IMG/VR virus record: IMGVR_UViG_3300044646_000899
Coordinates: 1-32,191 of that record
Source: a virus
Taxonomy: Duplodnaviria > Caudoviricetes
Direction: 5' to 3' (one strand)
DNA: 32,191 nt
The notes below the pieces were generated by a model. It ran no database searches, was not told where the DNA came from, and saw only the letters and a program-made list of their open reading frames with translations. Positions 2 through 22,139 of the stretch are shown here, in pieces. Position 1 is the stretch's first letter. Every line of letters begins with the position of its first letter. The position numbers were made by a program, and so were the translations under genes.

Positions 2-3000
2 ATGTCCAGTTTCCAGAAGGCGATCGACGAGGCGCTGCGCATGTCCGTGCAGCCGGGCGCGGAACCTATGCGTCCGCAGTCCGCACCGCAAATGTCCTTT
101 CAGGACGCGATCGACTCGATCGTTCAGACGCAATTGTCGGAAGCGCCCGGTGCCACGCCGGGCACGGCACCCGGCGAAGCGGATCTTCTGGAGGGTGCTG
201 CCAAGCAGTATGAAGACCTGCTGATCACGCCGGAAGGCGGAATTGGGATGACTGGGTCTGGCGGGATCCTGCCCCTGCGCGAGATTGAGCGTGGGTTGCG
301 GATGACCGCCGAACAGGCTGCACAGACCATTGCCACTCCGGGCATGCGAGGGCAGTTCATTCGGTCGCTCATGCGACCGAGTGAGTACATCGCGTCGTGG
401 TTCTCCGATGTCGATCCGGCAATGCACAACTTTGTCGCTCAGGCATTTGCAGACAAACTGTCCATGGCTGTCGAGCCGGAGAAGTCTGGGCTCACTGTTG
501 AGGATTTGCGGTCGGAATTGATTGCCATGCGTGGCGCGCAGCAAGGCATGATGCGCGGTGCCCCGGAGGGTGTGATTCCGGACGTAGCGCGTGCAGTTGG
601 GCAGAATGTCCCGCAGATGATTGGTGTTGCTGGTGCGCTGGCGACGGGAAATGTCCCAGTTGCGGCAGGCATCATCAGCACGGCGATGAGTCCGTTCACG
701 TCATATTCGTCGGGCTTCATTGAAGCCATGGACGAGGTTGACCAGCAGCGTGCGGATGACGCAATCGAGGGGCGTCCGCTGACGGAGTACTCGCTTCAGG
801 AATCCAGAACGCGAGCCGAAGCCCGCGCCGTCATTGAGGCTGGAGTGGAGGCTGGTGGCGCTGCAATCGGTGGCAAGGCGCTCGCAATGATTGCGGGTGT
901 TGGGCTCAATACCAAGGTTGGCAAGGCGGCATTGCGTCCGTTCATCGAGCGCGGCGCGCCGATTGTCAACAAGGCGTTGCAGTCCAAGGCTGGCCAGAAG
1001 GGTCTTGATACGTTTGCCAGAATTTCCAACGGGACTGCCTCGTTCAGGAACGGGTGGCTTGGCCGTGCGTCCGGAATCATTGGCGTGTCTGGACTTGAGG
1101 AGGGCGCGGAAGAGGGAATCACCGCTGCGCTGATGGCTCCGTTCACGGCAGCACCGCTGTCAAAGGATTTGGCTGACGGTGTGTACGGGGCGTTCATTGG
1201 AACCATCGCGGGTGGAATCGGCGGAACGGGATCTGTGCTCGCAGTGTCGGGCAATCGGGCGCTGATGAATCGCCGTGAAGCCATGCGGCCCGAAACGGAC
1301 CACGAACGTGCATTGCGGACCATCCATGGTGACGCGCTGAAGCGTCGGGTGAACTGGCAGGACGGCCTTGACCAGACGCAGATTGCCAGCGTGTCCAGTG
1401 CGTTGGACAGCCTGAACGGAATGGACCAGCAGCAGCGCGGCGTGTTCCTCGCTGATTTGGCGCAGCGGCAGGCGGATATCCAGACCGAGGTTGAGTCGAT
1501 GCTGGACGAACGCCAGCGTCTGGACATTGGTCTTGCGGGTGCCATGGATGCCATGGACGCGCAGGCGATTCAGGACATCAAGGACGACATCGCACGCATT
1601 GATGCTTCGATCGGCTCGGCTGTCACCGATCGGCTGATGGCTTCGGCCATCCACAATGCGGTGGCGGAGAAGATCAGCGAGATGCCTGCGGTTATGGAGC
1701 AGGCAGATCCGGCCACCGTCTTGAGTGGTATGGGCACCCGGGCTGGGATGACCATGACCGAAACCACGGCCCCGAAGTCTGGCAAGCGTGTCCAAAAGCA
1801 GATCGAGGCTTTGGGGCGGAAGGTGGTGTGGTTCCGCCCGTCCGGCAAGTTCAACCCGGCATTCCACTCGATGCGAAGCCGTGGGGTGGTGTACCTGAAC
1901 GCAGATGCAAAGCCTGATCGGATCATGGCTTCCGCGCTTGAGGAGGTCTTCCACGATATTCAGATGTTCCAGCCGGAGTTGGCCGAGGTGTTTATGGAGC
2001 GGGCGGGGCTTGCCCCGATCTACGCGGCTGGGGTCGAATACGCTGGGCGTGGGGCTCCAGAATCGGCTGCTACGGGTCGGATGGACCTCGCGGCCATGGA
2101 GCAGGCCGGGGCCGCTCTTGGGGCGCTGGAGGGCGTCCAGCAGGCTCCGATTGCCCCGGGAGTCGCCCGGGCGGGCGCGGCCCGTCTGGAGCAGGAGGGC
2201 GCAGCCAACGCCTTTGCAGCGGCAGCGGCGGCTACCCGTGGCGGCATCTTCGGCCCGGCGGTGGCATTTGCCGCCGCACGGGGGTTCCTAGGCCGCGAGG
2301 CCATGGCGGCGATGGCGGTATTTGAAACCGTTGCCCGGGCGGCGGCGGTGTCCAACGTCGTTGGCCCGAAGGTGCAGGATCCCTCACTGTCGCCACTTGC
2401 CCGCACGTTGCTGTGGGCTGGCAACATGGATGTGAACTTCGCACGTGATATTGAGACGGCACGAAAGTTCGTTGCCAAGCAGGCGGCGGAACGAGTCGGG
2501 AAGGTCATTGCGACCAAGCGCGAGAAGGCCGAAGCGGCAGCGCGCAAGGCGCAGGTGGGCGATATTCAGAAGTCCACAGCAGTAGCAAAGTTGCGCGAGG
2601 CGTTGGTTGGCCAGCCGAACATGCGCGAGGGTGCACGGCTTGACATGGCCCGCCGTTTCATGGCGGCAGCGGCGTCGATGGCGACGCTGAATTTTCGTCC
2701 GCTCACGCCGAGCGAATACCTGCAAGGCCACAAGCGAAACAAGGCTACGCAGACGCTGACCCAGTACACGCTCGATCAGATTGCCAATCCGACAATCGAA
2801 ACGAACGAAACGGGGACGACGCGCACGTCCTACGAGCCTTATGGGATTCCCGGGCTTGACGTGGCGTACATGATCAAGCGCGTGGAGTCTTTGGATTCTG
2901 AAGGCAAGCGCATCGGCGGATACGACGAGGCTGTCGGTCTTTACAGCAATGAGACCGATATCACCGACGTGATTGCTCCAGTGATGTTGCACGCAATCTC

Positions 3001-6000
3001 TCGGTATCCGAACACCGAGATGAGGTGCGATTGCTACGATGTGCGTCGGCCCGGGCAGGCAGAGCAGAACGGCAAGTTGCCGACTGCGTATCGCATGTTC
3101 GGATTCGTGGCGGACGAGCAGGCGATGCCCAACGGGTATGCGCAGTTTGATCCGCAGTATTTGACCCCTCCATCCGGCATGACGCTGGATGAATACATCG
3201 ACCTGCTTTCCAAGTACTGGAAGTCAGAAGGCTGGGTACCGGAGACAGATGCAAATGGACGAGTCACGAATTACCCCGGAGTCTGGTTCGCCAAACTCAA
3301 CCTCTCTGAGTCCGAACGAGAGCGGATTCGTAGCACTGGCCTTGCGGGCTTCACCGCTGACCCCAGCCGACTGGAAAGGATTGCGGCAGGACGAGGCGAA
3401 CGCGATGCTGTCGTTGGTGTATCAGTCGATGGAGAAGGCAGACCCAGCCCGCGTGTGGAGCAAGTGGACGCGGCAGGAGGTGCTCGCGACGATCAAGGGG
3501 ATCGCAGAAACCCGTCGGCAGATTCTGACATCTTCGTCGGCAGTGCTCGACGCATCTCTCTCGTAAAACTCACGCTCGCGCTCAAGCGCGAGTTGGACAC
3601 GCTGACTCCAGACAGCAAGGGGCGTTTGCTGTCTGCAAGCCAGTGGCTTCCGGCTGCGGTGAAGGTCGATCCCGAAGCGGCAGAAGCCGAGCGCATGGCG
3701 GCAATTCCGGTGATTGCCGATGCGATGGCTCGCGTGCGATCGTCGGAACGTGCTGTCGCAGAAGCGCAGGACGCCATCGAAGCCGAGCGCAAGCGTCTTC
3801 GTGCGGAACTGCGGCGCAAGGACGCATCGCCTGCCGAACTTGCGCAGACGCAAGCGTCGATCGTCCGACTCAATCAGGGTCGTGACATCGCGTCGTTGGC
3901 CGAGACCGCGTCGTACATGACGGCAGAGATCGGCACCATTGTCGCAATCACGAATGAACGTGCGCGCATTGTTGCGAAGCGCGAGTCGTTGCGGCAGTAT
4001 TCCAAACTGAAGGGCGCATACGCAAAGGATGACGTTGATCAGTCGGCAGAGGCTCGACTGGTCCGCCTTGCCGACGCCGCCGATGCGAAGGATCGCATCG
4101 CTGCATTGACGGAACGAATCCGCGACATTGACCAGCAGGTGTCCTCATGGGTTTCTGGTGATCCTCTGGTGCAGGCGCTGATGCAAGCGCAGGAGGATCT
4201 CGCGGAGTCAACTAGCGCGCTTGCCGATGCCAAGGCAAACACGTTCGGAGACATTCTGGCCGACAAGGGCATCATGTCCTATCGGATGGCCGGGTCGCGG
4301 AAGTACACGGTTGGTGAACTTCAGGTGCTGCTTGATTCCTTCAGCCAGTCCATCATGGGCTGGCTCACCGAATACACGCAGGCCAATCCGATTCCGAAGC
4401 AGGTCGAGCAGATCATGGTGCGATCCATTGCTGACGACCTCAAGTATGCGGCCACCAAGGCTGGGTCGGCCTCGGCGCTGGAATGGTATGGACGCCTCGT
4501 TGACCAGATGTGGTCGGAAGCGTCGCGCCGATACCCGGAGTTGGCAAAGAAGACGAGCGACGATCGACGCGTATTCGCGTTGATGCTGGCAATCACGTCG
4601 CAGGGCGAACGGGTGTCGAACAACGCACTACTGACCCGGGCCTTGTATGAGGCGTGGGTGAGCGCCGGGCGTGATCGCATCGTGATTCCTCCGTCGTTCG
4701 ATGCCCGTCACGTTGGGCCGATGATCGGCAACCTGAACAAGTTGAACGTCCTTCGTGAGACTCTCGGCTCATGGAAGGCTGTCGAGAAGTTCATGTTGAC
4801 CAAGGCGAAGGTGCGCCAGCACAACAAGACCTTGCGCGAGATGAACCTGTTGTCCGAGAACGGAAAGGTGGTGTTGATCAACGACGCCGCCGACGACATC
4901 GTGTACATGTCGTCCGTTCTTGGTCCGAAGATCGGATCGTTCTTCAACAACCTTTACAAGCGATTCGACACGCTGACCGCAGATGTCTGGTTCACGCGGA
5001 CCTTCATGCGTCCGCTTGGCATGCTGCGAAGACAAGATGACACGGCGATTCGGTCGGCTATTGCTGATGTCGCACAGGAACTGGCGAAGGCACGGGCAAT
5101 CGTTGCCGCAGGGAATCCTGATGCCGTCGGGTTTGCCGAAGCAGAGCAGGTATTGCGTCGAATCCCCGCGAACGTCTTGGAAAATCCGGCGCTGCTCGAT
5201 CAGGTTGCGACGAACTTCGACGTTGAATTTGCAAAGGATGTCCGCAATCGCGTGGTGGTTGGCACCTCGCTGAAGTTGCGGAAGAAGTCCCCGCTTGAGG
5301 CTGCGCTTGTGCGGTATGCCAAGGCGCTTTCGGCGTCGGCGGCGGCTCCAGAGTCGAATTACATTCGGACGCAGATGCGGTCGATTCTGACGCAAGCGAT
5401 TGATGTTGTCAAGAACGAGACTGGCTTGCAGTATGAGGTTGCAGACGCGCAGGCCGCGCTGTGGTATGTGGAGAAGGAGTTGTACGCCATGTTCGGCGCG
5501 GCGGATGACCCGGTGGGTCAGGACTACCGCGTGGCGATGCGCGAGGCGATGTCGGTGGATCTCGGCACGTCATCGGCGCAGGCACAGTTGCGCAGCGCAT
5601 TGGCGGAAAATGATCTCGACGCCACGGTGGCGGATGGTGCAGATGCTGGTGTTGTTGCCGAGCCGCAATCCGAGTCCTTTGCCCGCGAAGAGGCGCAGGA
5701 TGCGGAGGTCCGCAAGACCAAGGCCGCAATCGAAGCAGAACTTCGGTGGGCCGCTGAAAGCGGGTTTACGCTTGAGTCGTTCGCACGCGAACCGTCTGAC
5801 GAACTCAAGGCGCTGGTCGCTTCCGGAGACGCCAAGTTTATTGGAAGCCCAAATCCGACCAACCCAGTGATGCTTTATCACGCGACGGACGAGGTGAAGT
5901 TTTCCCCGTATCGGTCGGAAACTGGCAAGTTGCTTCGCGGGTTGTCGCTGTCAACGGTCGATACCGATGAACTCAAGGTCTTTGGCAAATACATTCATGC

Positions 6001-9000
6001 GTACTACGTGATTGCCACGAACCCGCTTCGTGTTGAGTGCCATGGTGCGTCGTGGGACAACATTCCGAGTTCGGCGTTGCCGTTGGATATTCGCGATGAA
6101 CTAGAATACGTTGCTATCTCAACGGATAAGGTTCAGCAAGTTGCGCTTGCTAACGGGTACGACGTTGTTCACTTTGTTGGGGTCAACGACGACGTTGGAA
6201 CGCACGATGAAATTGTCGTCAGCGGACGCCGCAACCTCATCAGCCCGTTCACTGGTGAAACGCTGGAGCAAATGGACTTTGCAGAGATGCGAGTAGGGAA
6301 TGTTCCTCCGCTCGCGGCGCTGTCGGGCAGTTCGCCACTTGGCGGATCCACCGGAGCAACGCTTCAGACTGCGCCTACGGGTGAACGATGGGTTGTAAAG
6401 GGCGATCTTGGCAACGCGAACTTCGGTCGGAACGAACTGCAATACTTCAACGCGTATCGGTTCTTTGGACTGCCTGTTCCTGACCATGGAATGGATGTCC
6501 GGGTTGGAACACCGGATCTCAACCGGGTTTTGATCACTCGGTACGCCGAGGGGTATCAAACGATCGGGCAGTTCCGAAAGGAGATGGGGCAGCGAGCGTT
6601 TGAAAAATCACTGACATATTCGGACTTGGGAGAACACATCGTTCTGCATGCATTGGCACGCAACTGGGATGTCATTGGCATGGACGGTGACAACACGCTT
6701 GTTGACCCGGACACTGGCAACGTGCTGTATGTCGATCTTGGTGGCACGGGTGGTTACCGCGCACAGGGGGAGGCCAAGCCATACATCACAGGGCCTTGGT
6801 GGTTTACTCAACTGCAAACGCTCGTGGAGTACAACCCCGATTACTTCTACATGCCGCCAAACGGCGCGATTATTACTGATGTGCTCACGTATTTCAAGGG
6901 TATTGCAGAAAACCGCGCCGCGCCAGAAGAAGAGCGTGTCAACCTTCCCGGTGATCTTCAGGAGCACGTGCGGACGGTTGCCGCATGGCTGCTTGGCGTG
7001 TCTGGAATGACCAACACCTTGGAATTGTCGAACATCCTGTTTCAGAACAGGGACGAGGCGTCAATAGAGCGCATTTATGAGCATGCCGGGAAGCGGCTCG
7101 ATGCACTCCGAAATTCCACGAACACGTTTGCGACGTGGCAGAGGATGACGTTTGAAAGCATTCGCGCCCTCGTAAGCGACGGACGAGTTGCACCATCCAG
7201 CATTCGCGAACTGATCCCTGACGAAGCACTTGATTTTCGGACCAATCAGGACGCATACGCTGCTGGCATTGCTGCGCTGCGCACCGCAATGATCGAGCGC
7301 GAACAGTCCGGCGAAGTCAATGTTGCGCTGTTGCCACGGTTTGTGGATGCATATATGCGGGTGTCTGGAAATACGGAACCAGAGATGGTGTTGTCGAAGG
7401 TTCTTGGGGATACCGATGCGCGTCTGATCGGGTATCTCATCAATGCGCATGATGGATTCATTGCCTCGATGCGGAATGAAGAACGCCCAAGTTCGTCCGC
7501 ATATGGCAACTACGCCAAACTAGTCAAGATTCCGGGCACGTCGGTCGTTGAACAGGTGTTCGGAACTGCCACTCCGGTTGGTGCTGGGCCAAGCGCAACA
7601 GAAAGCATGGCGCGAGATCCCGACGCTTCAGATGCCGAGCGAGACGCATTGCGGTCACAGATTTCCGACATGCAGCGCACGATGCGGGATCTTGAGAACA
7701 CGACTGCTGCGCAGCGTACAAACGCCATGCGCGAAGTGCGGGTCTTGCAGCGCAGGTTGTCGTTCGCGGAACTGGTTGCATCGCGCAAGGAAGGACAGGC
7801 GCAGCGATTGAAGGCGCGGCTGGAGCGTGTCAAGGCCATCAATGATGCCGAGCGGATCGCTGCTTCGGAGACTGCAAGCGCGGCTGCGAAGAAACTGGAG
7901 GAGGCGCGTGCTCGCGTGGTCCGCCTGCGCGAGGAGATGCGGGATCGCAAGTCCGAGACGCGAGAAGCAATTGAGGCGCTGGCCGAAGCGGAGGATCGTG
8001 TCGATCGCATTGCCAACTGGGCGTATGCCATCGGACGAAACGAGGGCTTGGTTGCCGGGCAGGTGTTTGGAATGCAGAAGGAACGCAACGCGGCCAAGCC
8101 TTTCCGTGAACGCGTCGCGGTGCTTGAAGCACGCGTTGCGCAGGCCGAGTCTGCGTTGCGCGCCGCGACCCACAGGATCAAGGTTGATGCCAAGGCGTCT
8201 GCTCGGGCAATCGACTTTGCGCACCAGATGGGTCTTCGTGCTGGGCAAGTGCAGGGAATGATGCGTGGTCGGCAGCAGATCCTGAAGAAGATGCAGCAGC
8301 GTGAGGACACGCTTCAGCGCCAGATTTTCGCGATCAAGACCATGCTCCAAAAGTCACGCAACGTGCTGGCAGTGCAGCGTGCAGCGCGGCGGATTGCCAT
8401 GGACGCGGCCATGATGCTTCCGCGCAATCTTCGCGGCCCGCTTGCCACGCGAATCGCCAACGCAACGACGATTGCAAAGGCCAATCGAGTTGCAGTCGAG
8501 GCAACCAAACTGGCCGTCAATGAGGAAGTTCGCCAGCAACTGCGGGTGATCTCTGCGCTGCGCAAGCGCATGAACAAGCGTGGAATGCGGTGGGACGTGC
8601 GGCAGGCGATCGAGCGTTTGCTGACGAAGGCGGACGCCAATCTCCGGCAGGCCAATCGCCGTCGCATCTATGCAACGGTGGCTACCGTGCCGGGCATGGG
8701 TTCGGCAGTGGTCAACGCTGTAAACATCTACGCGCAGGTCTTGGATTCGGCAAATGACGTGCAGGCTGCGTTGCTGCTGTACGAACAGGACCGGGCGTCG
8801 TTCGTGGCCGGGCAGCAGCAGCGCGTCGCCAGATACAACGACCTGAAGACCCGCCTTGCAACCGCCATGACTGGTCGGCAGACGCTGCCGATGCGGGATC
8901 GTGCGGACCTTCCACCTCGCCAGTCGCTGGCGCGCCGCATTTCCATTGCCAACTCGGACATCTACACCCTGATGCTTGAGGTCGAGGGCACGATGGGCGG

Positions 9001-11128
9001 AGTCATCAACGAGATGCTCGTCGGCGCACAGGATGCGAAGGGCGAGGCTGGGCTTGAGCATGCGCGCATCGTCAATTCGCTCGGCACTGCACTTCGTGCG
9101 GCGGGCTACGCTGGCATCGAAGACTACGCACTTCGCAACGGTCTCAACGGAACGTCGATCGCAGAGACCATGGACGTGGTGCTGGAAGGTCGGACGCGGA
9201 CAATTCCAGTTGGTTTGGCCATGTCCATCGCGGCAATGGATGACGAGACGCTGGAGTTGTTCATTCCACCGACGGCACCGGATGCGGCACGGCAGGGCTT
9301 GCAGTTCGCAGGAGCCGAGACGACCCTCACCGTATTCCCGACGGACGCGGAGATCCGGGCGATTCGTGCTGGGCTGACTGCGGGACAGCGCGGCCTGATC
9401 GATGCGATGAAGGACGTGCTTGAGGTGCAGATCCGTGACCGTGCAATGGAAGCCGTGTTCCTTGTCGAGGGCGACCAGCCCCCTGTGATCACGAACTACT
9501 GGCCTCGCGTCCGAAACATGGACGAATTCCAAGGCGAGTCAAAGTCAGTGCTGAACCAGCATGGGTCGTTGGTTCGCAGTGCGCTGACCAGCGTTGGGTT
9601 CACCAATGCCCGTGAAGGTGGACGCCAGCCGCTGATCTATCGCGATGCATTCCAGACGTGGGAGCGGCACCTGCATGTTGCGCTGGACATGATTCACATG
9701 GCGCAGCCCTATCGCGATGCATCGACCGTGCTCACCGATCCCGACATCGTGGCGGCAATCGATCGGCAGATGGGACGCAACACGGCGGAGGCGATCCTCG
9801 CGATCTTCAGCAACGGCGTCGGGGCGACGGCCCGGGCGTCAACGAACGCCATTGACCGGATGACCAACAACGTCACGGGCGCGGTTCTGTCGTTGTCGCC
9901 GCGCACGGCAGCGAAGGTCGTGGTCGGTGGAACGATTCGTCTTGGCAGCGAGATCCCCGGCAACTACTGGGTTGAGGGATTGTCGCGAGCGGCCATCCGC
10001 TTGCGTTCACCGAGCGCATGGGCTGCTCGCGTTGACGAGATCCATTCTGCCAGTGGCTACTTCACGCGGCGGCATCAGATGCAGATGCGAGGCATCGTGT
10101 CAGGCACGCTGTCTGCTGGCGATCGAGTCAAGGTGATGACCGCAGCCAAGGGAATGGCGCGTGCGTTCGCAGCCGCTGGGCATGCGGCCATTGCCAAGAA
10201 CATCACCGACAGTTTGAATGCGCTGGGGGATGCGACCGACAATGCGAACCTCACGCTCACCGCATTGATCGACATGCTCCGGCTGATGGACGAGCACATC
10301 ATGTCGGTCGCGGTGGAAGCACGACTGGCAGAGGCGAAGGACGAGGGCTTGACTGGTACCGATGCGTTTGAGCAGGCGGTGAAGCGGGCCGAGCGCGACT
10401 TCCGGCTGACCCAGAATGCCAGCGATGAATTCGATGAGACTGCATTCGCTGCCGTCAATCGAGTGCGTGGGTCCGGCGCAACGTGGCGCATGCTGTTCGT
10501 GTTCAGCAGCGACCCGCTCAAGGCGCGCAACCAAATCCGCCGTGCGTGGCTGTCTGGCGAACGACGAATCGGTACTGCGCTCGCCATTTCAGGCAACACC
10601 GCGAGCAGCACGATCATCGGTGTGGCGTCAGTCGCGACGGTTGCATACATGGCGAAGACGATCGCGGCCCTGTTCGGCGGAGCCGACGAGCCTGACGACG
10701 AGGAAGACAAGGCATTCGCTGAAGCCGTGAAGTCTGTCCCGGCATCGGTTGCAGCCGAATTGATCGGCTCCACGTTCGGATACGTTGGGCTCGGATTCTC
10801 GACTGCCCTGCAATCGATCGTCAATCGCCGTGCGATGGGACAGGCGATCGTTGTACGACCGATCGAACAGGCAGCGCGTGAGATGCAGGCTGACCGAGAG
10901 TGGTACTACAACGCCGTGCCTGCATTGCTGGCGCTGGGCCAGTTGCGTGGCGTGCCCGTGTACCAGTTGTATCGGTTCGTTGCGCAGCAGATTCCAGAAG
11001 AGGAGAAGGGCAAGGAGCGCACCGTGCAGGAAGCCGTCGATCGTCTGCGCATGCGCTACTCACCAGATGAAATTCGCAAGCGCATTCGCGAACAGGCAGC
11101 ACGACGGACGGTCCCAAGAATTCCCTAG
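2..11128 (+). CDS. Giant multidomain 'polyvalent' protein, probable internal virion/DNA-ejection protein carrying enzymatic modules
   Basis: 3708-aa uninterrupted ORF. Ala/Gly-rich helical N- and C-terminal parts and coiled coils. Internal motifs: LEEVFHD (~1937-1957), CDCYD...LPTAYRMFGF (~3026-3106), EWY...AITSQ...LGPKIGSFFNNL...TADVW...QAALW (~4480-5465), PVMLYHAT...GYD...DEIVV (~5864-6220), LGGSTGA...VVK...NE...NWDVIG..DN...VDLGG (~6338-6745). The start lies at the window edge, so upstream context is unseen. Confidence 0.85.
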   Translation: MSSFQKAIDEALRMSVQPGAEPMRPQSAPQMSFQDAIDSIVQTQLSEAPGATPGTAPGEADLLEGAAKQYEDLLITPEGGIGMTGSGGILPLREIERGLRMTAEQAAQTIATPGMRGQFIRSLMRPSEYIASWFSDVDPAMHNFVAQAFADKLSMAVEPEKSGLTVEDLRSELIAMRGAQQGMMRGAPEGVIPDVARAVGQNVPQMIGVAGALATGNVPVAAGIISTAMSPFTSYSSGFIEAMDEVDQQRADDAIEGRPLTEYSLQESRTRAEARAVIEAGVEAGGAAIGGKALAMIAGVGLNTKVGKAALRPFIERGAPIVNKALQSKAGQKGLDTFARISNGTASFRNGWLGRASGIIGVSGLEEGAEEGITAALMAPFTAAPLSKDLADGVYGAFIGTIAGGIGGTGSVLAVSGNRALMNRREAMRPETDHERALRTIHGDALKRRVNWQDGLDQTQIASVSSALDSLNGMDQQQRGVFLADLAQRQADIQTEVESMLDERQRLDIGLAGAMDAMDAQAIQDIKDDIARIDASIGSAVTDRLMASAIHNAVAEKISEMPAVMEQADPATVLSGMGTRAGMTMTETTAPKSGKRVQKQIEALGRKVVWFRPSGKFNPAFHSMRSRGVVYLNADAKPDRIMASALEEVFHDIQMFQPELAEVFMERAGLAPIYAAGVEYAGRGAPESAATGRMDLAAMEQAGAALGALEGVQQAPIAPGVARAGAARLEQEGAANAFAAAAAATRGGIFGPAVAFAAARGFLGREAMAAMAVFETVARAAAVSNVVGPKVQDPSLSPLARTLLWAGNMDVNFARDIETARKFVAKQAAERVGKVIATKREKAEAAARKAQVGDIQKSTAVAKLREALVGQPNMREGARLDMARRFMAAAASMATLNFRPLTPSEYLQGHKRNKATQTLTQYTLDQIANPTIETNETGTTRTSYEPYGIPGLDVAYMIKRVESLDSEGKRIGGYDEAVGLYSNETDITDVIAPVMLHAISRYPNTEMRCDCYDVRRPGQAEQNGKLPTAYRMFGFVADEQAMPNGYAQFDPQYLTPPSGMTLDEYIDLLSKYWKSEGWVPETDANGRVTNYPGVWFAKLNLSESERERIRSTGLAGFTADPSRLERIAAGRGERDAVVGVSVDGEGRPSPRVEQVDAAGGARDDQGDRRNPSADSDIFVGSARRISLVKLTLALKRELDTLTPDSKGRLLSASQWLPAAVKVDPEAAEAERMAAIPVIADAMARVRSSERAVAEAQDAIEAERKRLRAELRRKDASPAELAQTQASIVRLNQGRDIASLAETASYMTAEIGTIVAITNERARIVAKRESLRQYSKLKGAYAKDDVDQSAEARLVRLADAADAKDRIAALTERIRDIDQQVSSWVSGDPLVQALMQAQEDLAESTSALADAKANTFGDILADKGIMSYRMAGSRKYTVGELQVLLDSFSQSIMGWLTEYTQANPIPKQVEQIMVRSIADDLKYAATKAGSASALEWYGRLVDQMWSEASRRYPELAKKTSDDRRVFALMLAITSQGERVSNNALLTRALYEAWVSAGRDRIVIPPSFDARHVGPMIGNLNKLNVLRETLGSWKAVEKFMLTKAKVRQHNKTLREMNLLSENGKVVLINDAADDIVYMSSVLGPKIGSFFNNLYKRFDTLTADVWFTRTFMRPLGMLRRQDDTAIRSAIADVAQELAKARAIVAAGNPDAVGFAEAEQVLRRIPANVLENPALLDQVATNFDVEFAKDVRNRVVVGTSLKLRKKSPLEAALVRYAKALSASAAAPESNYIRTQMRSILTQAIDVVKNETGLQYEVADAQAALWYVEKELYAMFGAADDPVGQDYRVAMREAMSVDLGTSSAQAQLRSALAENDLDATVADGADAGVVAEPQSESFAREEAQDAEVRKTKAAIEAELRWAAESGFTLESFAREPSDELKALVASGDAKFIGSPNPTNPVMLYHATDEVKFSPYRSETGKLLRGLSLSTVDTDELKVFGKYIHAYYVIATNPLRVECHGASWDNIPSSALPLDIRDELEYVAISTDKVQQVALANGYDVVHFVGVNDDVGTHDEIVVSGRRNLISPFTGETLEQMDFAEMRVGNVPPLAALSGSSPLGGSTGATLQTAPTGERWVVKGDLGNANFGRNELQYFNAYRFFGLPVPDHGMDVRVGTPDLNRVLITRYAEGYQTIGQFRKEMGQRAFEKSLTYSDLGEHIVLHALARNWDVIGMDGDNTLVDPDTGNVLYVDLGGTGGYRAQGEAKPYITGPWWFTQLQTLVEYNPDYFYMPPNGAIITDVLTYFKGIAENRAAPEEERVNLPGDLQEHVRTVAAWLLGVSGMTNTLELSNILFQNRDEASIERIYEHAGKRLDALRNSTNTFATWQRMTFESIRALVSDGRVAPSSIRELIPDEALDFRTNQDAYAAGIAALRTAMIEREQSGEVNVALLPRFVDAYMRVSGNTEPEMVLSKVLGDTDARLIGYLINAHDGFIASMRNEERPSSSAYGNYAKLVKIPGTSVVEQVFGTATPVGAGPSATESMARDPDASDAERDALRSQISDMQRTMRDLENTTAAQRTNAMREVRVLQRRLSFAELVASRKEGQAQRLKARLERVKAINDAERIAASETASAAAKKLEEARARVVRLREEMRDRKSETREAIEALAEAEDRVDRIANWAYAIGRNEGLVAGQVFGMQKERNAAKPFRERVAVLEARVAQAESALRAATHRIKVDAKASARAIDFAHQMGLRAGQVQGMMRGRQQILKKMQQREDTLQRQIFAIKTMLQKSRNVLAVQRAARRIAMDAAMMLPRNLRGPLATRIANATTIAKANRVAVEATKLAVNEEVRQQLRVISALRKRMNKRGMRWDVRQAIERLLTKADANLRQANRRRIYATVATVPGMGSAVVNAVNIYAQVLDSANDVQAALLLYEQDRASFVAGQQQRVARYNDLKTRLATAMTGRQTLPMRDRADLPPRQSLARRISIANSDIYTLMLEVEGTMGGVINEMLVGAQDAKGEAGLEHARIVNSLGTALRAAGYAGIEDYALRNGLNGTSIAETMDVVLEGRTRTIPVGLAMSIAAMDDETLELFIPPTAPDAARQGLQFAGAETTLTVFPTDAEIRAIRAGLTAGQRGLIDAMKDVLEVQIRDRAMEAVFLVEGDQPPVITNYWPRVRNMDEFQGESKSVLNQHGSLVRSALTSVGFTNAREGGRQPLIYRDAFQTWERHLHVALDMIHMAQPYRDASTVLTDPDIVAAIDRQMGRNTAEAILAIFSNGVGATARASTNAIDRMTNNVTGAVLSLSPRTAAKVVVGGTIRLGSEIPGNYWVEGLSRAAIRLRSPSAWAARVDEIHSASGYFTRRHQMQMRGIVSGTLSAGDRVKVMTAAKGMARAFAAAGHAAIAKNITDSLNALGDATDNANLTLTALIDMLRLMDEHIMSVAVEARLAEAKDEGLTGTDAFEQAVKRAERDFRLTQNASDEFDETAFAAVNRVRGSGATWRMLFVFSSDPLKARNQIRRAWLSGERRIGTALAISGNTASSTIIGVASVATVAYMAKTIAALFGGADEPDDEEDKAFAEAVKSVPASVAAELIGSTFGYVGLGFSTALQSIVNRRAMGQAIVVRPIEQAAREMQADREWYYNAVPALLALGQLRGVPVYQLYRFVAQQIPEEEKGKERTVQEAVDRLRMRYSPDEIRKRIREQAARRTVPRIP

Positions 11129-11495
11129 TTCGCATCGAGGCTTCGCCTCGCTGCTCGCTACGGGAGTGAGTAGTAGTTTGTTTTTATAAAGGTCTCGCAG
11201 GGGGCTGCGCCCCCCGCACCCCCGCACAGCCCCGAGCGCAGGCTGCTGGGCTGTTTGCAGTTCAACTGGTGAGTGAAGGAACACCATGACCCCGGCAAGA
11301 GGTCACGGGAATCAGCCCAGCCGGAGCCGTGCGAGGTTTCCCATTGCCCACATGTTGCACCATTTCGCTGGGTGGTAGCCAGCCGCCTCACTGTGGGATG
11401 AGCGCGTCGTGTCAGGGCGACGGCGCGGGCTAGGGTCATGTCCCGCGTCTTGAACCACTTTGCCCCTACCGTGCCGGGCAATACTTGCAGGAGCA

Positions 11496-11524
11496 TTGAC
11501 CCGCAGGCCAGAGTGCGCTATGCT
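11496..11524 (+). promoter_or_regulatory. Sigma70-type promoter (rightward) for the predicted sRNA
   Basis: TTGACC (11496-11501), 17-nt spacer, TATGCT (11519-11524). The predicted start near 11531 coincides with the first base of a helix. Confidence 0.65.
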
Positions 11525-11530
11525 CCCAGC

Positions 11531-11686
11531 GCGTTTGGTTGTGCTTCAGCCAGCATGGTAGCGTCCCGGTCGCGCCCATGTCAAACGCAGGGTCAGGGGG
11601 ACGGGCGCGGTCAGGTGCCCGTCCCCACCCCCATTCAAGCCCCCGGAAGCACGCCCCTGTTGCCGCAAGGCCGGGGGCGTGTTTAT
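11531..11686 (+). ncRNA. Predicted structured small RNA displaying two GGUCAG seeds
   Basis: GCGTTTG(11531-37)/CAAACGC(11582-88) closes inner helices GGTTG/CAGCC and CATGG/CCATG. Linker AGGGTCAG (11589-96). 12-bp stem 11597-11608/11615-11626 with loop GGTCAG. Terminator-like hairpin 11647-11684. G-U pairs and a GCAA tetraloop favour the + strand. No credible ORF. Confidence 0.6.
11555..11584 (-). promoter_or_regulatory. Sigma70-type promoter (leftward)
   Basis: On the minus strand, TTGACA (11584-11579), 18-nt spacer, TACCAT (11560-11555). Confidence 0.55.
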
Positions 11687-11687
11687 T
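11647..11687 (+). terminator. Probable intrinsic terminator ending the sRNA
   Basis: GCACGCCCCTG-(TT bulge)-GCC-GCAA-GGC-CGGGGGCGTGT followed by TTATT (short U tract). Confidence 0.5.
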
Positions 11688-11755
11688 CATGGCTTGCGAT
11701 GAATACTTCCGATGGGGGTGTATGGACCTGAACACTCCTGAATTACGGTAAGCCT

Positions 11756-12655
11756 GTGAAACTACCGTGGTCGGTGACCTCACTCGCCCGCAACATCCAC
11801 CACGTAGAACTGGTGGCGAAGAGCGTGACCGACCACTGGTGGTTTCTGTTATCAGGGGACAGACATCACGATAACCCATTGGCAAATCACGATTTAGAGA
11901 AGCAACACTTCGCTGAAATGGTTCGGCGCAAGGGTGGTTGGATCGATGTAGGTGACCTCTTTTGTGCGATGGAGGGGAGAGCGGATCCACGGCGAAGTCG
12001 CAAAGGGGTACGAGAAGAGCACGCTCTGGCCCCGGACTACTTCGACTCGATCGTCAACCATGCGGCGACGTTCTATGCGCCGTACTCGCAGCACTGCGTC
12101 GTGATCGGGCGCGGCAACCACGAGTCTAGTGTCCTCAAGAATAATGAGACGGACCTGACCGAGCGGCTGTGCGAGCGCATGTCGATGATGTCAAAGCATC
12201 GGGTGCATGCTGGCGGGTACGGGGGCTGGGTGAAGTTCACGGCCAGCGTGAACAGCCACCGCTTCGCCCTGAACCTGAAGTATTTCCACGGCAGCGGAGG
12301 GGCCGCACTGATGTCATTCGACACCCTGAAGGTTCGCCGTCAGGCTGCGGTGATTCCAGACGCGGACGTAATCGTGCAGGGCCACGTCCACAAGCAATGG
12401 GTGATGCCGCTGGCCCGGGAGCGCCTGATCTACGATCGCAACGGCATGCGCGTCGAACACGACACCCAGTACCACGTGCGGGTCGGGACGTACAAGGACG
12501 AATACGCCGACGGAAATGGGGGCTTCCACGTGGAGCAGGGGCGCACGCCGGAAATTCAGGGCGCAGTATGGATGCGCCTCTCGTTGCACAAGGGAACCGC
12601 TCCCAGCGGGTGCATGGCCTATCGCCTGAAGCCGGAGTTCTTCCCCGCAAACTGA
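11756..12655 (+). CDS. Calcineurin-like metallophosphoesterase
   Basis: All five metal-binding motifs in order: GDRHHD, DVGDLF, GRGNHE, FHG, QGHVH. GTG start, exact start uncertain. Confidence 0.85.
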   Translation: MKLPWSVTSLARNIHHVELVAKSVTDHWWFLLSGDRHHDNPLANHDLEKQHFAEMVRRKGGWIDVGDLFCAMEGRADPRRSRKGVREEHALAPDYFDSIVNHAATFYAPYSQHCVVIGRGNHESSVLKNNETDLTERLCERMSMMSKHRVHAGGYGGWVKFTASVNSHRFALNLKYFHGSGGAALMSFDTLKVRRQAAVIPDADVIVQGHVHKQWVMPLARERLIYDRNGMRVEHDTQYHVRVGTYKDEYADGNGGFHVEQGRTPEIQGAVWMRLSLHKGTAPSGCMAYRLKPEFFPAN

Positions 12656-12672
12656 CCGTTTGAGGAGGACAG

Positions 12673-13106: not shown

Positions 13107-13149
13107 GCGACTCGCAAGCATGGTGCTTGCCACAACCGGAGACTGACCC

Positions 13150-13968
13150 ATGAAGATTGTGATGGACATGCCGGAGGCTGAATACCACAGCCTCGACCGT
13201 ATGAGCGCAAGCGCGCTCAAGACCCTTGACCGCGCCACGCCGCTGCACCTGTTGGCCGAGCGGGAGAACCAGACCGACTCATCCGCATTTCGCGTTGGCC
13301 GTGCGTTGCACAGCCTGCTGCTGACGCCAGCCAAGTACGAACTGGACTTCGTCACCTCCCCAGACATCGACCGCCGCACGAAGGCTGGCAAGGAAGAGTG
13401 GGAGAAATTTCTTACGATCGCTGATGGTCGCACGGTCCTTACCAAGGACGAGTCGAACCTTGTCGAAGAGATGCGTGGCGGCGTGATGTCCTGCGAAACC
13501 GCACGCCAATTGCTCGCTGCGTGTGGGACCTGCACCGAAATGACGCTCATTGGTGAGTGGGATGGCATCCCGTGCAAGGCCCGCATCGATGGATTCATCG
13601 AGGAACACGGCACCATCATCGACATCAAGACCCATGGTGGCTTGGCATCGCCGCAGGAATTCGCCAAGGCTGCGCACAACTTCGGGTACTGGACCCAGTT
13701 CGCGTTCTATCGCGAGATGCTGCGCCGCGCTGGCAAGGAGGTCACTAGCGTGATCCTGATTGTCGTAGAGAAGAATGCACCGCACGCATGCCTGTGCGCT
13801 GCGCTGCACACCGACCATCTCGACCTCGCGACTGCCCGCCTGCCTGAACTGCTCGACCTCTACCGCAAGTACATGGACGAACCCGGCCAAGGCTGGCCAG
13901 ATACCGTGACCGAAATCCGCATGCCCAACTGGGCGACCACTGACCTACTCGCACCTATCGGAGACTGA
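13150..13968 (+). CDS. RecE/exonuclease VIII-like PD-(D/E)xK exonuclease (DUF3799-like)
   Basis: EYH...MSASALK, GRALHSLLLTP, DRRTKAGKEEW, CKARIDG...IIDIKT, YWTQFAFY, IVVEKNAPH. SD GGAGA. Confidence 0.9.
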   Translation: MKIVMDMPEAEYHSLDRMSASALKTLDRATPLHLLAERENQTDSSAFRVGRALHSLLLTPAKYELDFVTSPDIDRRTKAGKEEWEKFLTIADGRTVLTKDESNLVEEMRGGVMSCETARQLLAACGTCTEMTLIGEWDGIPCKARIDGFIEEHGTIIDIKTHGGLASPQEFAKAAHNFGYWTQFAFYREMLRRAGKEVTSVILIVVEKNAPHACLCAALHTDHLDLATARLPELLDLYRKYMDEPGQGWPDTVTEIRMPNWATTDLLAPIGD

Positions 13969-13971
13969 CCC

Positions 13972-14763
13972 ATGAATCGCACAGACTTCATCGGAGAACT
14001 GGCGGCTGCGCTCGCCAAGAGCAATTTGGAAATCCGCAATGCGGAACTCGACCGCGTCAACCCCCACTTCAAGAACCGCTACGCCACGCTCGGGAGCATC
14101 CTCAACGCGATCCGCATTCCGCTTGCCAAGAATGGAATCGCCCCTGTTCAGACCGTGAGCATGGCCAACGGGATGGTCACCGTCACTACCTCGCTGATCC
14201 ACGCGTCGGGTCAGGCGATCGAGGACGTGGCCATGTTCCCGCTGCCCAACAACGCCACCGTGCAGCAGATGGGATCCTGCATCACGTACCTTCGCAGGTA
14301 CGCGCTCGCGGCCATCGTCGGGATCGTTGGTGACGAGGACGATGACGGGGAGAACGACCGCGCTACCCGCTTGACCCCGGTCCGCGATGCGTTCAAGCCC
14401 ACGCAGGCGCGTGGTGCGGCGGAGGTTCCCGCAAAGAAGCCTGCGCCTGCGGCGACGCCAGCGCAGCCAGCGCAGACCGAACCTATCGGTGACTGGATTG
14501 CCATCACCGTCAAGTACGCGGACGAGGGCGTGGCTGGCAAGAATCAGACTCCGTATGTGAAGTTGAAGGACTCCAACGGCAACGCCTACTTCGTGTGGGA
14601 TGAGCAGTTGCACGGGGTTGCCAAGGCCGTGCAAGGGCAGACGGTGTGGATCATCACCGAGGCGTCCAAGAAGGCCGATGCGCCGCCCCGTGTCACGCAG
14701 ATCCGCATGAAGCCGCCGGAGCCCGCCTCGATTGCGGGGGACATCTTCGATGAGCAGGACTGA
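13972..14763 (+). CDS. erf: ERF-family single-strand annealing protein with a C-terminal OB-like domain
   Basis: NPHFKNRYATL, LIHASGQ, QQMGSCITYLRRYALAAIVGI..DEDDDG. Adjacent to the exonuclease. Confidence 0.9.
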   Translation: MNRTDFIGELAAALAKSNLEIRNAELDRVNPHFKNRYATLGSILNAIRIPLAKNGIAPVQTVSMANGMVTVTTSLIHASGQAIEDVAMFPLPNNATVQQMGSCITYLRRYALAAIVGIVGDEDDDGENDRATRLTPVRDAFKPTQARGAAEVPAKKPAPAATPAQPAQTEPIGDWIAITVKYADEGVAGKNQTPYVKLKDSNGNAYFVWDEQLHGVAKAVQGQTVWIITEASKKADAPPRVTQIRMKPPEPASIAGDIFDEQD

Positions 14764-15091
14764 CCTCGCAGCAAATGGGTTGCCTCCCCGGCGCACGCCG
14801 GGGCAGGCAACCCGCTGGGACACGCAGGATGCAGCATGGGATGCGGTGCAGCCACGGCTAGCAACCATTCAGCACAAGGTGCTGGAGGCCATCCGCGAAT
14901 GCCCGAGCACCTGTGACGAGTTGGAGCAGGCGCTCGCCCTCACACATCAAACATGCAGCGCAGCCGTCAACAACCTGATGAACAAGGGATTGATCGTGGC
15001 AAGCGGCTATCGCCCGACGCGCTCCGGAAGATCCGCCCGGGTATGGAAGTGCGCCGACTCGGAATTCCTGTTTCCAGTGGGGGCAGCATGA
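14750..15091 (+). CDS. Winged helix-turn-helix DNA-binding protein
   Basis: VLEAIR..PSTCDELEQALALTHQTCSAAVNNLMNKGLIVASGYRPTRSGRSARVW is a typical phage wHTH pattern. Confidence 0.8.
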   Translation: MSRTDLAANGLPPRRTPGQATRWDTQDAAWDAVQPRLATIQHKVLEAIRECPSTCDELEQALALTHQTCSAAVNNLMNKGLIVASGYRPTRSGRSARVWKCADSEFLFPVGAA

Positions 15092-18092: not shown

Positions 18093-18179
18093 GTCAGGTC
18101 TCCGTAAGGGGTCAGGTGCTGGCCAACGTGGCAAGCCCAAGCCCCCCGGCGCGAACCGGGGGGCGAGGGCGAGTCACCA

Positions 18180-19193
18180 TCAGGCGAGCGCAGCAACCGC
18201 CTTCCACACCTCGGCGGTGTCATCCGCCACGGTGCCGCCCCAGTTGGCGAAGCGGCGGACGGTGGGGTCCTTGACCCGGACGCTGTAGTCCGAGCGGACG
18301 TGCTGGATCCAGTTGGTGGCGGCGTTGGCCGCGACCCATGCCGTCGCACCGAACTGCTGCGACTCGCGGTCGAACACCTGCGCCATGTGCGCGAGGCCAG
18401 CGATCGCCTGCTCGCGGCTGCGCTCCTCCCACCCGTTGGTGGGCTTGGCCGGGATCTCGCCGTCGAGGCGCTGGATCACCTCGACCCACAGGTCCTGCAC
18501 CTGTGTGCGCGTCATCTTGCGGGCGGCGAGCGCCGAAGCGAACTCGCGGCCCTTGGAGATCGACGCGAACCACGTGTTGATCGTGGTCTTCAGGTGTTCG
18601 ACGCGGTGGTTGATGCCGCTGGTGTGGCGGAACGAGATCACGTCGCGGGACTGCCCCATCGCAGCCCGGTAGGTGTTGGCGCACACGACGCGCACGTTGG
18701 TGCCGAACGCCTTGAGCGATTCGCCACCGTCGTGCCCGTTGGCGAGCATGAGGTAGGGGGTGGTCACGTCGCCCTTGCCACCGATCTCCACGCTGGGTGC
18801 CTGAATCAGGAACCACACGCGCTTGCCGCCCCGGATGGACCCGGCGGACTCGATCTTCACACCCTGCTCCGACGAGGCGTCGCGCAGGGCGTAGGCCAGT
18901 TCGGCCAGCGTCTGATTCTGCACCGGGGTGTAGTCGGGGCCGACCACGCCGAGGACCGAGTGGTCATCGGAGCGGACCAGCACCTTGGCGGTGTCGGTCG
19001 AGACGCGGTACTCCGACTGCTCGCCGGGGTTGAAGATCCCGGTCAGGCTGGCGGACTCCTCGACGGTCCACTCCAGCCGGGCGAGGCGGAGGGCGGCGAA
19101 GGGGTTGGGGGCGGACTCCACGACGGTGCCGAGGCCGTGCCAAGCGGCGTTGCGGGCGAGGACGAGGCCGTCGTTCTGCTGAATCTCGTGCAT
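18180..19193 (-). CDS. DUF932 / TIGR03299-family phage/plasmid protein
   Basis: AWHGLGTVV, LEWTV, VLGVVGPDYTPVQN, ESAGSIRGGKRVW, LANGHDG, TNVRVVCANT, FRHT, TAW.A.NA.T.W..H. Confidence 0.9.
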   Translation of the reverse strand: MHEIQQNDGLVLARNAAWHGLGTVVESAPNPFAALRLARLEWTVEESASLTGIFNPGEQSEYRVSTDTAKVLVRSDDHSVLGVVGPDYTPVQNQTLAELAYALRDASSEQGVKIESAGSIRGGKRVWFLIQAPSVEIGGKGDVTTPYLMLANGHDGGESLKAFGTNVRVVCANTYRAAMGQSRDVISFRHTSGINHRVEHLKTTINTWFASISKGREFASALAARKMTRTQVQDLWVEVIQRLDGEIPAKPTNGWEERSREQAIAGLAHMAQVFDRESQQFGATAWVAANAATNWIQHVRSDYSVRVKDPTVRRFANWGGTVADDTAEVWKAVAALA

Positions 19194-19250
19194 GGTCAGT
19201 ATCTCCGGTCAGGGGTCAGGTGTCCCAGTCACGCGACTGGAACATGGGTG

Positions 19251-19278
19251 AATGTACAGAGTATCGACTGGAAGTCAA
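19251..19278 (-). promoter_or_regulatory. Sigma70-like early promoter for the DUF932 unit
   Basis: TTGACT, 16 nt, TACATT. Near-identical architecture to 22140-22167. Confidence 0.65.
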
Positions 19279-19927: not shown

Positions 19928-19955
19928 GGTCAGGGTCTCCTCTGGTGGTGTGGTG

Positions 19956-20114: not shown

Positions 20115-20211
20115 GGTCAGGGTCTCCGGTCAGGGGTTCAGGTGCTAGCCAACATGGCAAGCGCAGGGGCCACCTTGCGATGGCCCGAGCGCGAGTCACG
20201 CCGTCTCTGAA

Positions 20212-20661: not shown

Positions 20662-20746
20662 GGTCAGATGCTCCGTATGGGTGAATGTGCGGGGCCAACG
20701 TGGCCGTCGCATCCGCCACCCCGTCGCCGGGGTGGGCGGTGCGCGG

Positions 20747-21133: not shown

Positions 21134-21224
21134 GGTCAGGTCTCCGGTCAGGGGTCAGGTCATGCGCGTCACGGTGACGCGCCCCTTCCCCCCCGTTGCC
21201 GGGGGGGGTGGGGCGTTGCACTGG

Positions 21225-21479
21225 TTAGGCGGTGGCGGGGACGAACACTACGGTACGGTCATCGGGGTCGGTGTCGAGCGTCGCTGATGCGCCGTCCGGC
21301 ATCGTCCACTGCCACGCCGCGCCCACCCGGCGAATGTCGGTGCCGCCCGCGAGGCGGACGAACACGTGGGCATCGGTGTAGGACGGGAACACAACGGCGT
21401 ATTCGCCATCGGTGCCGCTCGCCCACTGGCGGTAGATTTCAGGGGCGGTGCCGGGCTTGATTCGGATGCACTTGGTCAT
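21225..21479 (-). CDS. Hypothetical protein (84 aa)
   Basis: MTKCIRIKPG...; conserved leader directly upstream of this internal ATG of the 310-aa track ORF. Confidence 0.7.
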   Translation of the reverse strand: MTKCIRIKPGTAPEIYRQWASGTDGEYAVVFPSYTDAHVFVRLAGGTDIRRVGAAWQWTMPDGASATLDTDPDDRTVVFVPATA

Positions 21480-21562
21480 GGTCAGGTCTCCGGTCAGGGG
21501 TTGGAATCGCGTCCAATGACGCGCACTAGCCCCCCTCGCGGGGGGTAGGTGCGGGGCACGGG

Positions 21563-21973: not shown

Positions 21974-22139
21974 GGTCAGGGTCTCCGGTCAGAGGCGAGC
22001 CTGCAACACGCGTCGCAGGCGAATGCCGCGCAGTCGGGTTTCCCCGGCTGGCGGCTGGTTGGTTCGCACTCCCTGTGTCCGCAGGCGTTCGGCCTGCTGG
22101 GGAGCGCGTCTTCACTTGCCAAAGATCACCGACACACAC

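Follow-up and report, generated by a model that had tools for sequence, protein, structure and literature searches.

A candidate phage small RNA whose predicted open loop complements a repeated early-gene leader, and its predicted convergent partner RNA

The window, i.e. the whole stretch of DNA analysed here, is a virus record of 32,191 bases (G000 among the genomes compared) with an estimated completeness of 77%. According to PHROGs and Pfam it codes for terminase, portal, capsid, exonuclease VIII-like, Erf-like, RusA-like and DUF932 proteins. A winged-helix protein is encoded at 14750-15088, with a Pfam score below the curated cut-off, and positions 2-11128 (+) carry an ORF of at least 3708 aa which has no Pfam match and ranges from about 2300 to about 3800 aa in relatives. 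Gene starts were taken from a simple custom caller by which some genes are missed; the gene at 21133 was added by hand. The label "early" was assigned on gene content and position.

Relatives were found by scans with phosphoesterase, capsid, exonuclease VIII and DUF932 proteins and with DNA patterns, and the metagenome scan yielded at least one locus. Searches of cultured phages and plasmids returned chance matches of 35-37 nt or none. One RNA run with 8% of the words gave contigs from relatives of about 90% identity, which leave positions 10648-11975 uncovered. Clues to the host are in conflict: fragments of the capsid gene occur in two genome bins of unrelated phyla, and the DUF932 protein has matches of 43-42% that are labelled Phycisphaerales/Planctomycetota. 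In the complete close relative G007, no integrase, cI-type repressor or antirepressor family was found by Pfam (E<=0.001) among 48 ORFs, a set of all ORFs but the longest and six that overlap others or are cut, and the same 48 ORFs gave no polymerase, primase or helicase family.

The features of interest are two predicted convergent RNAs, RNA-1 and RNA-0, and a group of gene leaders that carry the hexamer CUGACC (Table 1). No gene was called at the RNA-1 locus. Pairing energies were obtained with a custom ungapped duplex-plus-opening script, not with IntaRNA.

Table 1. Predicted RNAs, promoters and target leaders in the window (energies in kcal/mol; pairing refers to the RNA-1 loop).
Feature	Position	Strand	Remarks
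P+, predicted sigma70-type promoter of RNA-1	11496..11524	+	TTGACC-17-TATGCT by promoter scan
RNA-1, predicted small RNA of ~155 nt	11531..11688	+	fold z -4.88; homologues in same slot
5′ three-way-junction domain	11531..11588	+	P2 loop differs among near-identical relatives
L4 loop UCCCGGU	11564..11570	+	opening 0.3-1.3; doubles as P- spacer
Linker AGGGUCAG	11589..11596	+	lower stem and internal loop, partly open only
Seed hairpin	11597..11626	+	12-bp GC stem with one G-U pair, loop GGUCAG at 11609-11614
CCCCCGGAAG motif, terminator-like hairpin and U-rich tail	11640..11688	+	recurs with changed stems in relatives
P-, predicted convergent promoter inside RNA-1	11555..11584	-	TTGACA-18-TACCAT, scan score 10/12
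RNA-0, predicted structured non-coding RNA of ~290 nt	11258..11548	-	covariation; no Rfam match
Target leader, exonuclease VIII-like gene	13136..13149	+	pairing -7.2
Target leader, Erf-like gene	13940..13971	+	pairing -6.8
Target leader, gene starting 18092	18093..18119	-	pairing -4.8
Target leader, DUF932 gene	19194..19222	-	three CUGACC around GGAGA; pairing -7.5
Target leader, gene starting 19927	19928..19945	-	pairing -6.4
Target leader, gene starting 20114	20115..20145	-	pairing -7.7
Target leader, gene starting 20661	20662..20680	-	pairing -6.9
Target leader, gene starting 21133 (hand-added)	21134..21160	-	pairing -7.2
Target leader, gene starting 21479	21480..21500	-	pairing -6.6
Target leader, gene starting 21973	21974..21995	-	pairing -7.3
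Doubtful site, stop codon of upstream gene	12652..12657	+	21 nt before HExxH ORF; pairing -4.2

The promoter described in the initial annotation was recovered at its position. In relatives its hexamers are kept as TTGAC(C/A) and TA(T/G)(A/G)(C/A)T with a spacer that changes, and in L254 P+ is found without a -35. The foldable unit of about 155 nt that had been described downstream of it also held up: the segment 11531-11690 folds at -85.9 kcal/mol, which is equalled by none of 200 shuffles, and the plus strand is favoured, the reverse strand (11525-11700) having a z of -1.80 with 8 of 200 shuffles as good. The window has no Rfam match at the gathering score and by E-value chance matches only. 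When homologues are folded singly, the three-way junction has the same topology in 12 of 13 cases, while RNAalifold on a sequence alignment of this 5′ domain gave no consensus. Column by column the support is weak: for the named structure of RNA-1, only 66.5% of 194 cells pair and covariation is 0.251 vs 0.166.

Two single-stranded segments had been proposed in the core of this RNA. The hairpin loop GGUCAG is indeed predicted to be open (opening cost 0.0), whereas in the model the linker is mostly paired, its GGG with the C-run at 11628-32, and opens at 5.1 kcal/mol. The extended 10-nt pairings proposed for the two segments would cost 9.9 and 15.3 kcal/mol. Because the loop opens at no cost in contrast to linker and extensions, the predicted RNA-1 has a single exposed seed, not two. 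The L4 loop is a possible minor third seed (CCGGUC against GACCGG); ACCGG occurs in 5 of 11 leaders and the L4 loop is never the best pairing site. The seed hairpin is identical in G007 and G011, and GGUCAG is retained solely in the near relatives G007, G008 and G011.

At the 3′ end, the terminator-like hairpin had to be qualified. It is absent (11647-84) from the list of the terminator scan, but relatives too have CCCCCGGAAG followed by a GC hairpin, of altered sequence, and a U-rich tail, and this combination of motif and hairpin terminator usually closes the slot. Between G012 and L157 the 3′ hairpin shows paired changes; in these two relatives it is the reverse strand that has the better fold. 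The loop or tail of RNA-1 contains UCCAUCC in G001, G003, G012, L156 and L157, and CCAUCC in L161/L162. For this conserved motif no shared target was found at gene starts.

CTGACC is strongly enriched in the window, with 49 copies where 19.1 +/- 4.4 are expected, a number reached by none of 100 shuffles. Twenty of these copies are located within -35..-1 of the 32 called starts (0.73 expected if uniform). The hexamer is present in 8 of 11 minus-strand early leaders vs 4 of 20 plus-strand leaders, the latter including those of exonuclease VIII (13150) and Erf (13972). This confirms the eight minus-strand leaders and the RecE-like (exonuclease VIII) and Erf leaders of the initial annotation, so that ten of its about 11 target gene starts remain. 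The further one, assigned to a peptidase leader, is doubtful: six of the 49 copies contain a called stop codon, and this one is the stop codon of the phosphoesterase-like gene and pairs weakly. The "peptidase" ORF behind it is recognised by its HExxH motif alone and has no match in PHROGs or Pfam.

The best site for pairing with the loop is at -6..-1 in 5 of 8 early leaders and at -7 for exonuclease VIII and Erf; in 3 of 8 early leaders it is found at -18 to -25, upstream of the Shine-Dalgarno sequence. In L156 and G012 the seed match covers the Shine-Dalgarno sequence itself. Leaders throughout the family share the core GGAGA..(U)GACC-AUG, with CUGCC or CGACC before the AUG in other members. 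This core thus exists without RNA-1 and has not arisen for RNA-1.

Further copies of CUGACC may represent additional targets: 14760-65 (+) in the first codons of the winged-helix ORF, 21962-67 (-) in the first codons of gene 21973, and 16233-38 (+), 27 nt before the RusA-like start. Early genes (-) are each preceded by a module of about 90 nt, composed of a GC hairpin without U-tract, a small palindrome and a C-rich stretch, after which the leader follows. Such modules occur at 18093-18180, 20115-20210, 20662-20745, 21134-21225 and 21480-21560 (-) and could be ESAS-like or processing sites. Promoter-like sequences are found ahead of the early cluster (TTGACT-16-TACAGT, 22140-22167, -) and ahead of the DUF932 gene (TTGACT-16-TACATT, 19251-19278, -).

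We scored RNA-1 against all called early leaders of its own genome, misses included, and compared the result with 1000 shuffles. The observed mean longest complement was reached by 11 shuffles for the window, by 16 for G007 and by 6 for G011. It was reached by 0/1000 shuffles for L156 and G012, and likewise for L294 (vs L156 leaders) and L157 (vs G012 leaders). Controls for the window were at chance (sense 410/1000, plus-strand genes 98/300). The window itself had been chosen for its loop-leader match, and its usable seed has 6 nt in a 6-nt loop, whereas L156 and G012 were found by homology and therefore constitute the real test. In L156 the hairpin loop complements CGGAGACCCUGAC (13 nt), with 11-13 nt in 7 of 12 leaders. 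In G012 it is the P2 loop that complements CUGGAGAACCU (11 nt), and CUGGAGAACC(U) is matched over 10-11 nt in 10 of 14 leaders. Two other lineages thus carry different predicted seeds that match their own leaders.

Other homologues of RNA-1 lack a leader seed, as judged from the shuffles reaching the observed value (of 1000): G001 (886, with only 5 leaders), G003 (995) and L254/G016 (788). L161 (302) and L162 (253) have just a 6-nt match, ACUGGA, which is found in 5 leaders of each genome (out of 12 and 10, respectively). Repeated leaders are present in G003, G016, L161 and L162. Over the lineages, seed and leader are matched in three, the match is absent in three and weak in one. The second RNAs of G001 and G003 gave 491 and 530 shuffles per 1000 against their own leaders, and genomes that have repeated leaders without RNA-1 gave 448 (G002), 349 (G004), 877 (G005) and 459 (G006).

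With opening costs included, early leaders of the window have a median of -6.6 vs -3.1 for other starts and -1.9 for gene interiors (p 0.014). Early leaders are also bound better in L156 (-9.7, p 2.6e-4), G012 (-8.9, p 4.8e-7) and G011 (-6.6, p 9.8e-4). Binding is weak in G002 (median -2.6, p 0.006), and there is no early-leader preference in L161, G003, L254, G004 and G005. In a genome-wide ranking of antisense 8-mer clusters, the RNA-1 slot is at the top in the window (1/167), in G011 (1/264) and in G012 (1/281). With the early cluster masked it ranks first in G000 (1/148), G007 (1/167) and L156 (1/48) and is unranked in the other 8 of the 11 genomes tested; in G001 the slot is outside the top five antisense clusters.

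Between close relatives the seed loop is fixed and variation is confined to the other loop, which is P2 in the case of G000, G007 and G011 and the hairpin in the case of G012 and L157. On the exonuclease VIII tree the seed label needs three changes, at least two of which are forced by well-supported branches; the hairpins of G000 and L156 may share an origin. L156 and G012 have their highest score with their own leaders. However, the match is not strictly one-to-one, as RNA-1 of G000 also fits the leaders of G012 (p 9.5e-5) and L156 (p 9.2e-4), and that of L156 fits the leaders of G000 (p 2.8e-3) and G012 (p 1.2e-6). The RNA-1 of G012 does not fit the leaders of G000 or L156 (p 0.39, 0.16).

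A prospective test covered 43 rows (42 loci, with seven skipped as short or without a -10) and flanks of up to 10 kb. Its sole positive is the already known L156 contig (0/200 shuffles). An 8-mer in at least four leaders was found in 13 rows, and none of the 10 new ones among them matches RNA-1. The window-type locus scored nothing, because its early cluster is outside the flank.

The initial annotation had asked whether the loop and leader hexamers co-vary, and would count homologous loci that keep the stems, and CUGACC in the leaders, beside a loop other than GGUCAG against its proposal. Literally, such loci exist: CUGACC is kept in 9 of 14 leaders of G012, the loop of which is not GGUCAG, and in 4 of 10 leaders of L254/G016, which has no seed. 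G012 carries another seed that matches its leaders; G016 carries none. The idea of one RNA with shared targets gains support from a top antisense match in three lineages, with different seeds and loops; its version with two GGUCAG seeds is weakened by a linker that is mostly paired.

Two further observations concern G003 and G002. The loop of G003 has no target at a start in its own genome and matches GGAUGUCG, which in G004/G005 belongs to a structured stretch on the left side of the promoter. In G002, the top antisense cluster to its own leaders (GGCAGAGUC) is at 16814 (+), just left of RNA-0 and outside the slot between promoter and terminator.

The comparison of relatives also exposed a predicted partner of RNA-1. 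From P-, a transcript is predicted to start at ~11548 and to overlap RNA-1 by ~18 nt; a -10-like hexamer is found at the place of P- in all 13 homologues, with scores of 7-10 of 12. The predicted RNA-0 covaries strongly, with 38 pairs in seven helices, 97.1% of 454 cells paired and double changes in 23 pairs, the helices having been picked on the same alignment on which they were scored. None of 500 shuffles is as good, and slid controls pair at 38-47%. The minus strand is favoured by the counts of G-U against A-C (130 / 17 on minus vs 41 / 25 on plus). One helix pairs the -10 region of P+ with bases before the -35, and both sides co-change while the -10 stays promoter-like. RNA-0 ends at a conserved AACUG. 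A pattern scan gave 105 matches, of which 95, each a viral record, are true homologues of RNA-0; 50 of these are distinct, and in most of the 50 a short convergent RNA-1 with hairpin and U-tract was seen by eye. The module also occurs in G021, which has other structural genes and no leader cluster. Judged by these sequences, the predicted RNA-1 is the short half of a widespread convergent pair with RNA-0 that is found in many phages without the leader.

Several assignments were tried for RNA-0 and rejected. A tRNA or tmRNA is not indicated, since none was detected by ARAGORN in 12 loci. Resemblances to hammerhead, HDV-like, group I/II and RNase P RNAs were judged by eye against the motifs of these RNAs and dropped. 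A 5′ leader of the next gene was rejected because the downstream genes mostly carry promoter-like sites of their own; seven proteins encoded downstream of RNA-0 have no PHROG match. A gene family of ~150 aa often follows RNA-0 (L367, L368, L397, L406, L441), with a promoter-like site directly before the start; the members compared with PHROGs have no match. Within RNA-0, the conserved loop UGAC(C/U)CU (11433-11439, -) could pair with the strand GGG(G/A)GUCA (11287-11293) of a later helix, a possible switch, and a second loop-to-strand pairing (CCCACA/UGUGGG) seems by eye to co-change across lineages. Another loop, GGCUCCG, is almost invariant and exposes a CUCC that resembles an anti-Shine-Dalgarno sequence. 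Beyond the RNA-0 end, positions 11140-11235 of the window have a G-run, an A-run and GCTTCGC-type repeats, which we take to be origin-like. RNA-2, another RNA of the cassette, has a conserved (U/C)UCUCUGACGAG, its own promoter and the same terminator as the RNA-1 slot. It occurs in L003 (9840-9925), L004, L005, L006, L008, L016, L373, L377 and L382 and has no Rfam match in L003-L006 and L008.

The co-occurrence of RNA-0 with a mostly seedless RNA-1 in most of the 50 distinct loci, including G021 without leader cluster, raises the question whether RNA-1 controls only RNA-0, by overlap of 5′ ends, loop contacts or promoter interference, the leader matches being captured copies or by-products without effect. 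Contacts of this kind can be drawn: in both G012 and L157 the RNA-1 hairpin loop has a 9-nt match to the RNA-0 of the same genome, the G012 seed is within the predicted RNA-0 overlap, and the linker of the window is complementary over 7 nt to the RNA-0 loop UGACCCU (11433-39). However, the seeds of the window and of L156 are upstream of P- and outside RNA-0, and the account would leave unexplained why three lineages each have a different match of 9-13 nt, top-ranked and in a loop that is predicted to be open, and why these matches are fixed between relatives. We regard this account as possible though rather doubtful.

The second question is whether the CUGACC boxes are protein sites, either operators on the DNA, at early genes and just upstream of P-, or sites on the mRNA for a repressor of the type of T4 RegA, with the cassette copies as additional sites or as a minus-strand decoy. 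The cassette copies of CTGACC are on the strand of the early genes and precede the -35 of P- by 7 and 25 nt, the winged-helix protein encoded in the window (with its Pfam score below the curated cut-off) would be a candidate, and the better reverse-strand fold of G012 and L157 agrees with this account. Yet in the window the plus-strand fold is favoured, with a G-U pair in the hairpin, and promoter and terminator face the plus direction. Unlike fixed operators, the copies differ by lineage in sequence and in place (upstream of, within or downstream of P-), and they are always in plus-strand loops. Protein sites are therefore considered improbable.

Pairing may be real and serve superinfection exclusion or competition more than timing, the resident phage silencing early genes of incoming relatives. 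The cross-fits of the G000 RNA to G012 and L156 leaders and of the L156 RNA to G000 and G012 leaders point in this direction, as does the RNA-2 of G004, which fits the leaders of G003 and G012 better than its own. The c4 RNA, which acts in immunity (PMC5320573, in the part available), and the CI RNA of P4 would be models. Against exclusion as the main role, the complete G007 has no integrase or repressor in its Pfam set, and the RNAs of L156 and G012 have their best scores against leaders of the same genome; we consider it quite improbable. That RNA-1 pairs with the leaders and stimulates or stabilises, for which the sites upstream of the Shine-Dalgarno sequence in 3 of 8 early leaders could be quoted, is very improbable given a best site that abuts the AUG in 5 of 8 and in exonuclease VIII and Erf and covers the Shine-Dalgarno sequence in L156 and G012.

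On balance, we consider it probable, by a modest degree, that the predicted RNA-1 pairs via its predicted open GGUCAG with CUGACC at ten likely early and recombination genes and thereby keeps ribosomes from loading on the whole set simultaneously. RNA-1 would be made from its own host-type promoter, and its open loop would pair with CUGACC beside the start codon at about -5 to -8 kcal/mol and hinder 30S binding. Repression is preferred because the best sites are between the Shine-Dalgarno sequence and the AUG or just upstream of the AUG. As a stable RNA it might accumulate with time and genome copy number, resulting in a delayed, dose-dependent off-switch for early genes. The initial annotation had suggested a temporal or lifestyle switch; its lysogeny part finds no support, as no integrase or cI-type repressor was detected by Pfam in G007. 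The scaffold of RNA-1 appears to be older than the seed, a short convergent partner of RNA-0 that usually ends in a plain terminator hairpin. Its loops seem to be changeable and, in this phage family, may on at least two occasions have come to target the repeated early leader. Incoming relatives whose leaders are similar might be affected by RNA-1 as well, a second role, in exclusion, that is allowed by the cross-fits.

Phage RNA c4 controls one antirepressor operon in a temperate phage. In P1/P7 it is a folded RNA (Rfam RF01695) the loops of which pair in trans with short boxes at the ribosome-binding site, and, from one relative to another, changes in the loop go with changes in the target (PMC5320573, in the part available); c4 motifs are tabulated in PMC2864571. 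RNA-1 gave 0 matches to the C4 covariance model at E<=10. While c4 has ~77 nt, three stems, RNase P processing and two open loops (a′, b′) on one target, RNA-1 is a predicted primary transcript of ~155 nt with its own predicted promoter and terminator and one open loop at the ribosome-binding site, a second seed costing 5.1 kcal/mol. RNA-1 would have about ten dispersed targets, and the complete G007 has no antirepressor, integrase or repressor (Pfam, 48 ORFs). The CI RNA of satellite phage P4 is a small RNA that shuts off the replication genes of its phage by pairing to short sites (PMC4825925, in part). It is cut from the transcript it controls and causes termination at seqA/seqC, whereas RNA-1 has its own predicted promoter and terminator and its predicted targets are separate leaders in other transcription units, 1.5-10 kb away, at the start codon.

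The leaders themselves resemble the SAS of Cluster K mycobacteriophages, a short asymmetric repeat that contains the Shine-Dalgarno sequence and precedes non-structural genes in one orientation. Its authors left open whether RNA or protein binds, and single reverse copies are found away from starts in four genomes (PMC3203893, in the part available). The window leaders fit this description, with the hexamer in 8 of 11 early leaders and 20 of its 49 copies close to starts, but GGAGA..CUGACC does not match the 13-bp SAS consensus of Cluster K. Consensus and host group differ, and here a candidate partner RNA is present whose seed tracks the repeat in three lineages. RNA-1 would work like c4 on SAS-type repeats, yet it belongs to neither the C4 nor the RNAI model family.

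The latter model (RF00106) represents RNA I of ColE1, which forms with RNA II a pair of structured RNAs, one short and one long, made from promoters that converge and overlap, the long RNA priming DNA synthesis. RNA-1 has 0 matches to it at E<=10. RNA I is fully complementary to the 5′ part of RNA II, whereas RNA-1 and RNA-0 are predicted to overlap by ~18 nt only. RNA-0 alternates with a gene of DUF1376 type, which lies where RNA-0 would be in G004 and G005 (and G022 by N-terminus; Pfam for G004); for a priming role this, like the lack of polymerase, primase and helicase families among the 48 ORFs of G007, is circumstantial. One may speculate that RNA-0/RNA-1 is an undescribed protein-free module of many uncultured phages in which RNA-0 is a primer or origin RNA replacing an initiator gene and RNA-1 its controller, with loops as re-programmable guides that were aimed repeatedly at early leaders in this family, so that a single RNA would couple the control of replication with early-regulon shutdown and with the exclusion of relatives; as a whole we rate this as rather unlikely.

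The phage sRNAs sar, OOP, aQ, VpdS, PreS and 24B_1 regulate phage development (PMC12197685, in part). Some of them are antisense RNAs acting in cis on a single gene, others have host RNAs or a single antirepressor as targets, and the sections available describe no leader repeat of many genes. PMC10914365, as far as accessible, has no shared-leader design. The literature searched, with few subscription papers and with the 38 function-less sRNAs in the supplement of PMC12197685 outside the comparison, contains in its available parts no phage RNA that pairs with a leader repeat of many genes.

In summary, the predicted open loop of RNA-1 is the exact complement of the motif repeated in the leaders, and in two related lineages different loop sequences match their own leaders; hence RNA-1 is likely to turn early-gene translation down as a group. 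SAS-type repeats at phage ribosome-binding sites have been without known partner since the SAS report (PMC3203893, in the part available). Here, a candidate partner RNA is found in the same genome as the repeat. Across three lineages the seed of this RNA varies along with the repeat, so that three seed-leader pairs are at hand for swaps. If the proposal is true, a phage would be able to set the timing of an entire regulon through a single RNA, with no protein involved.
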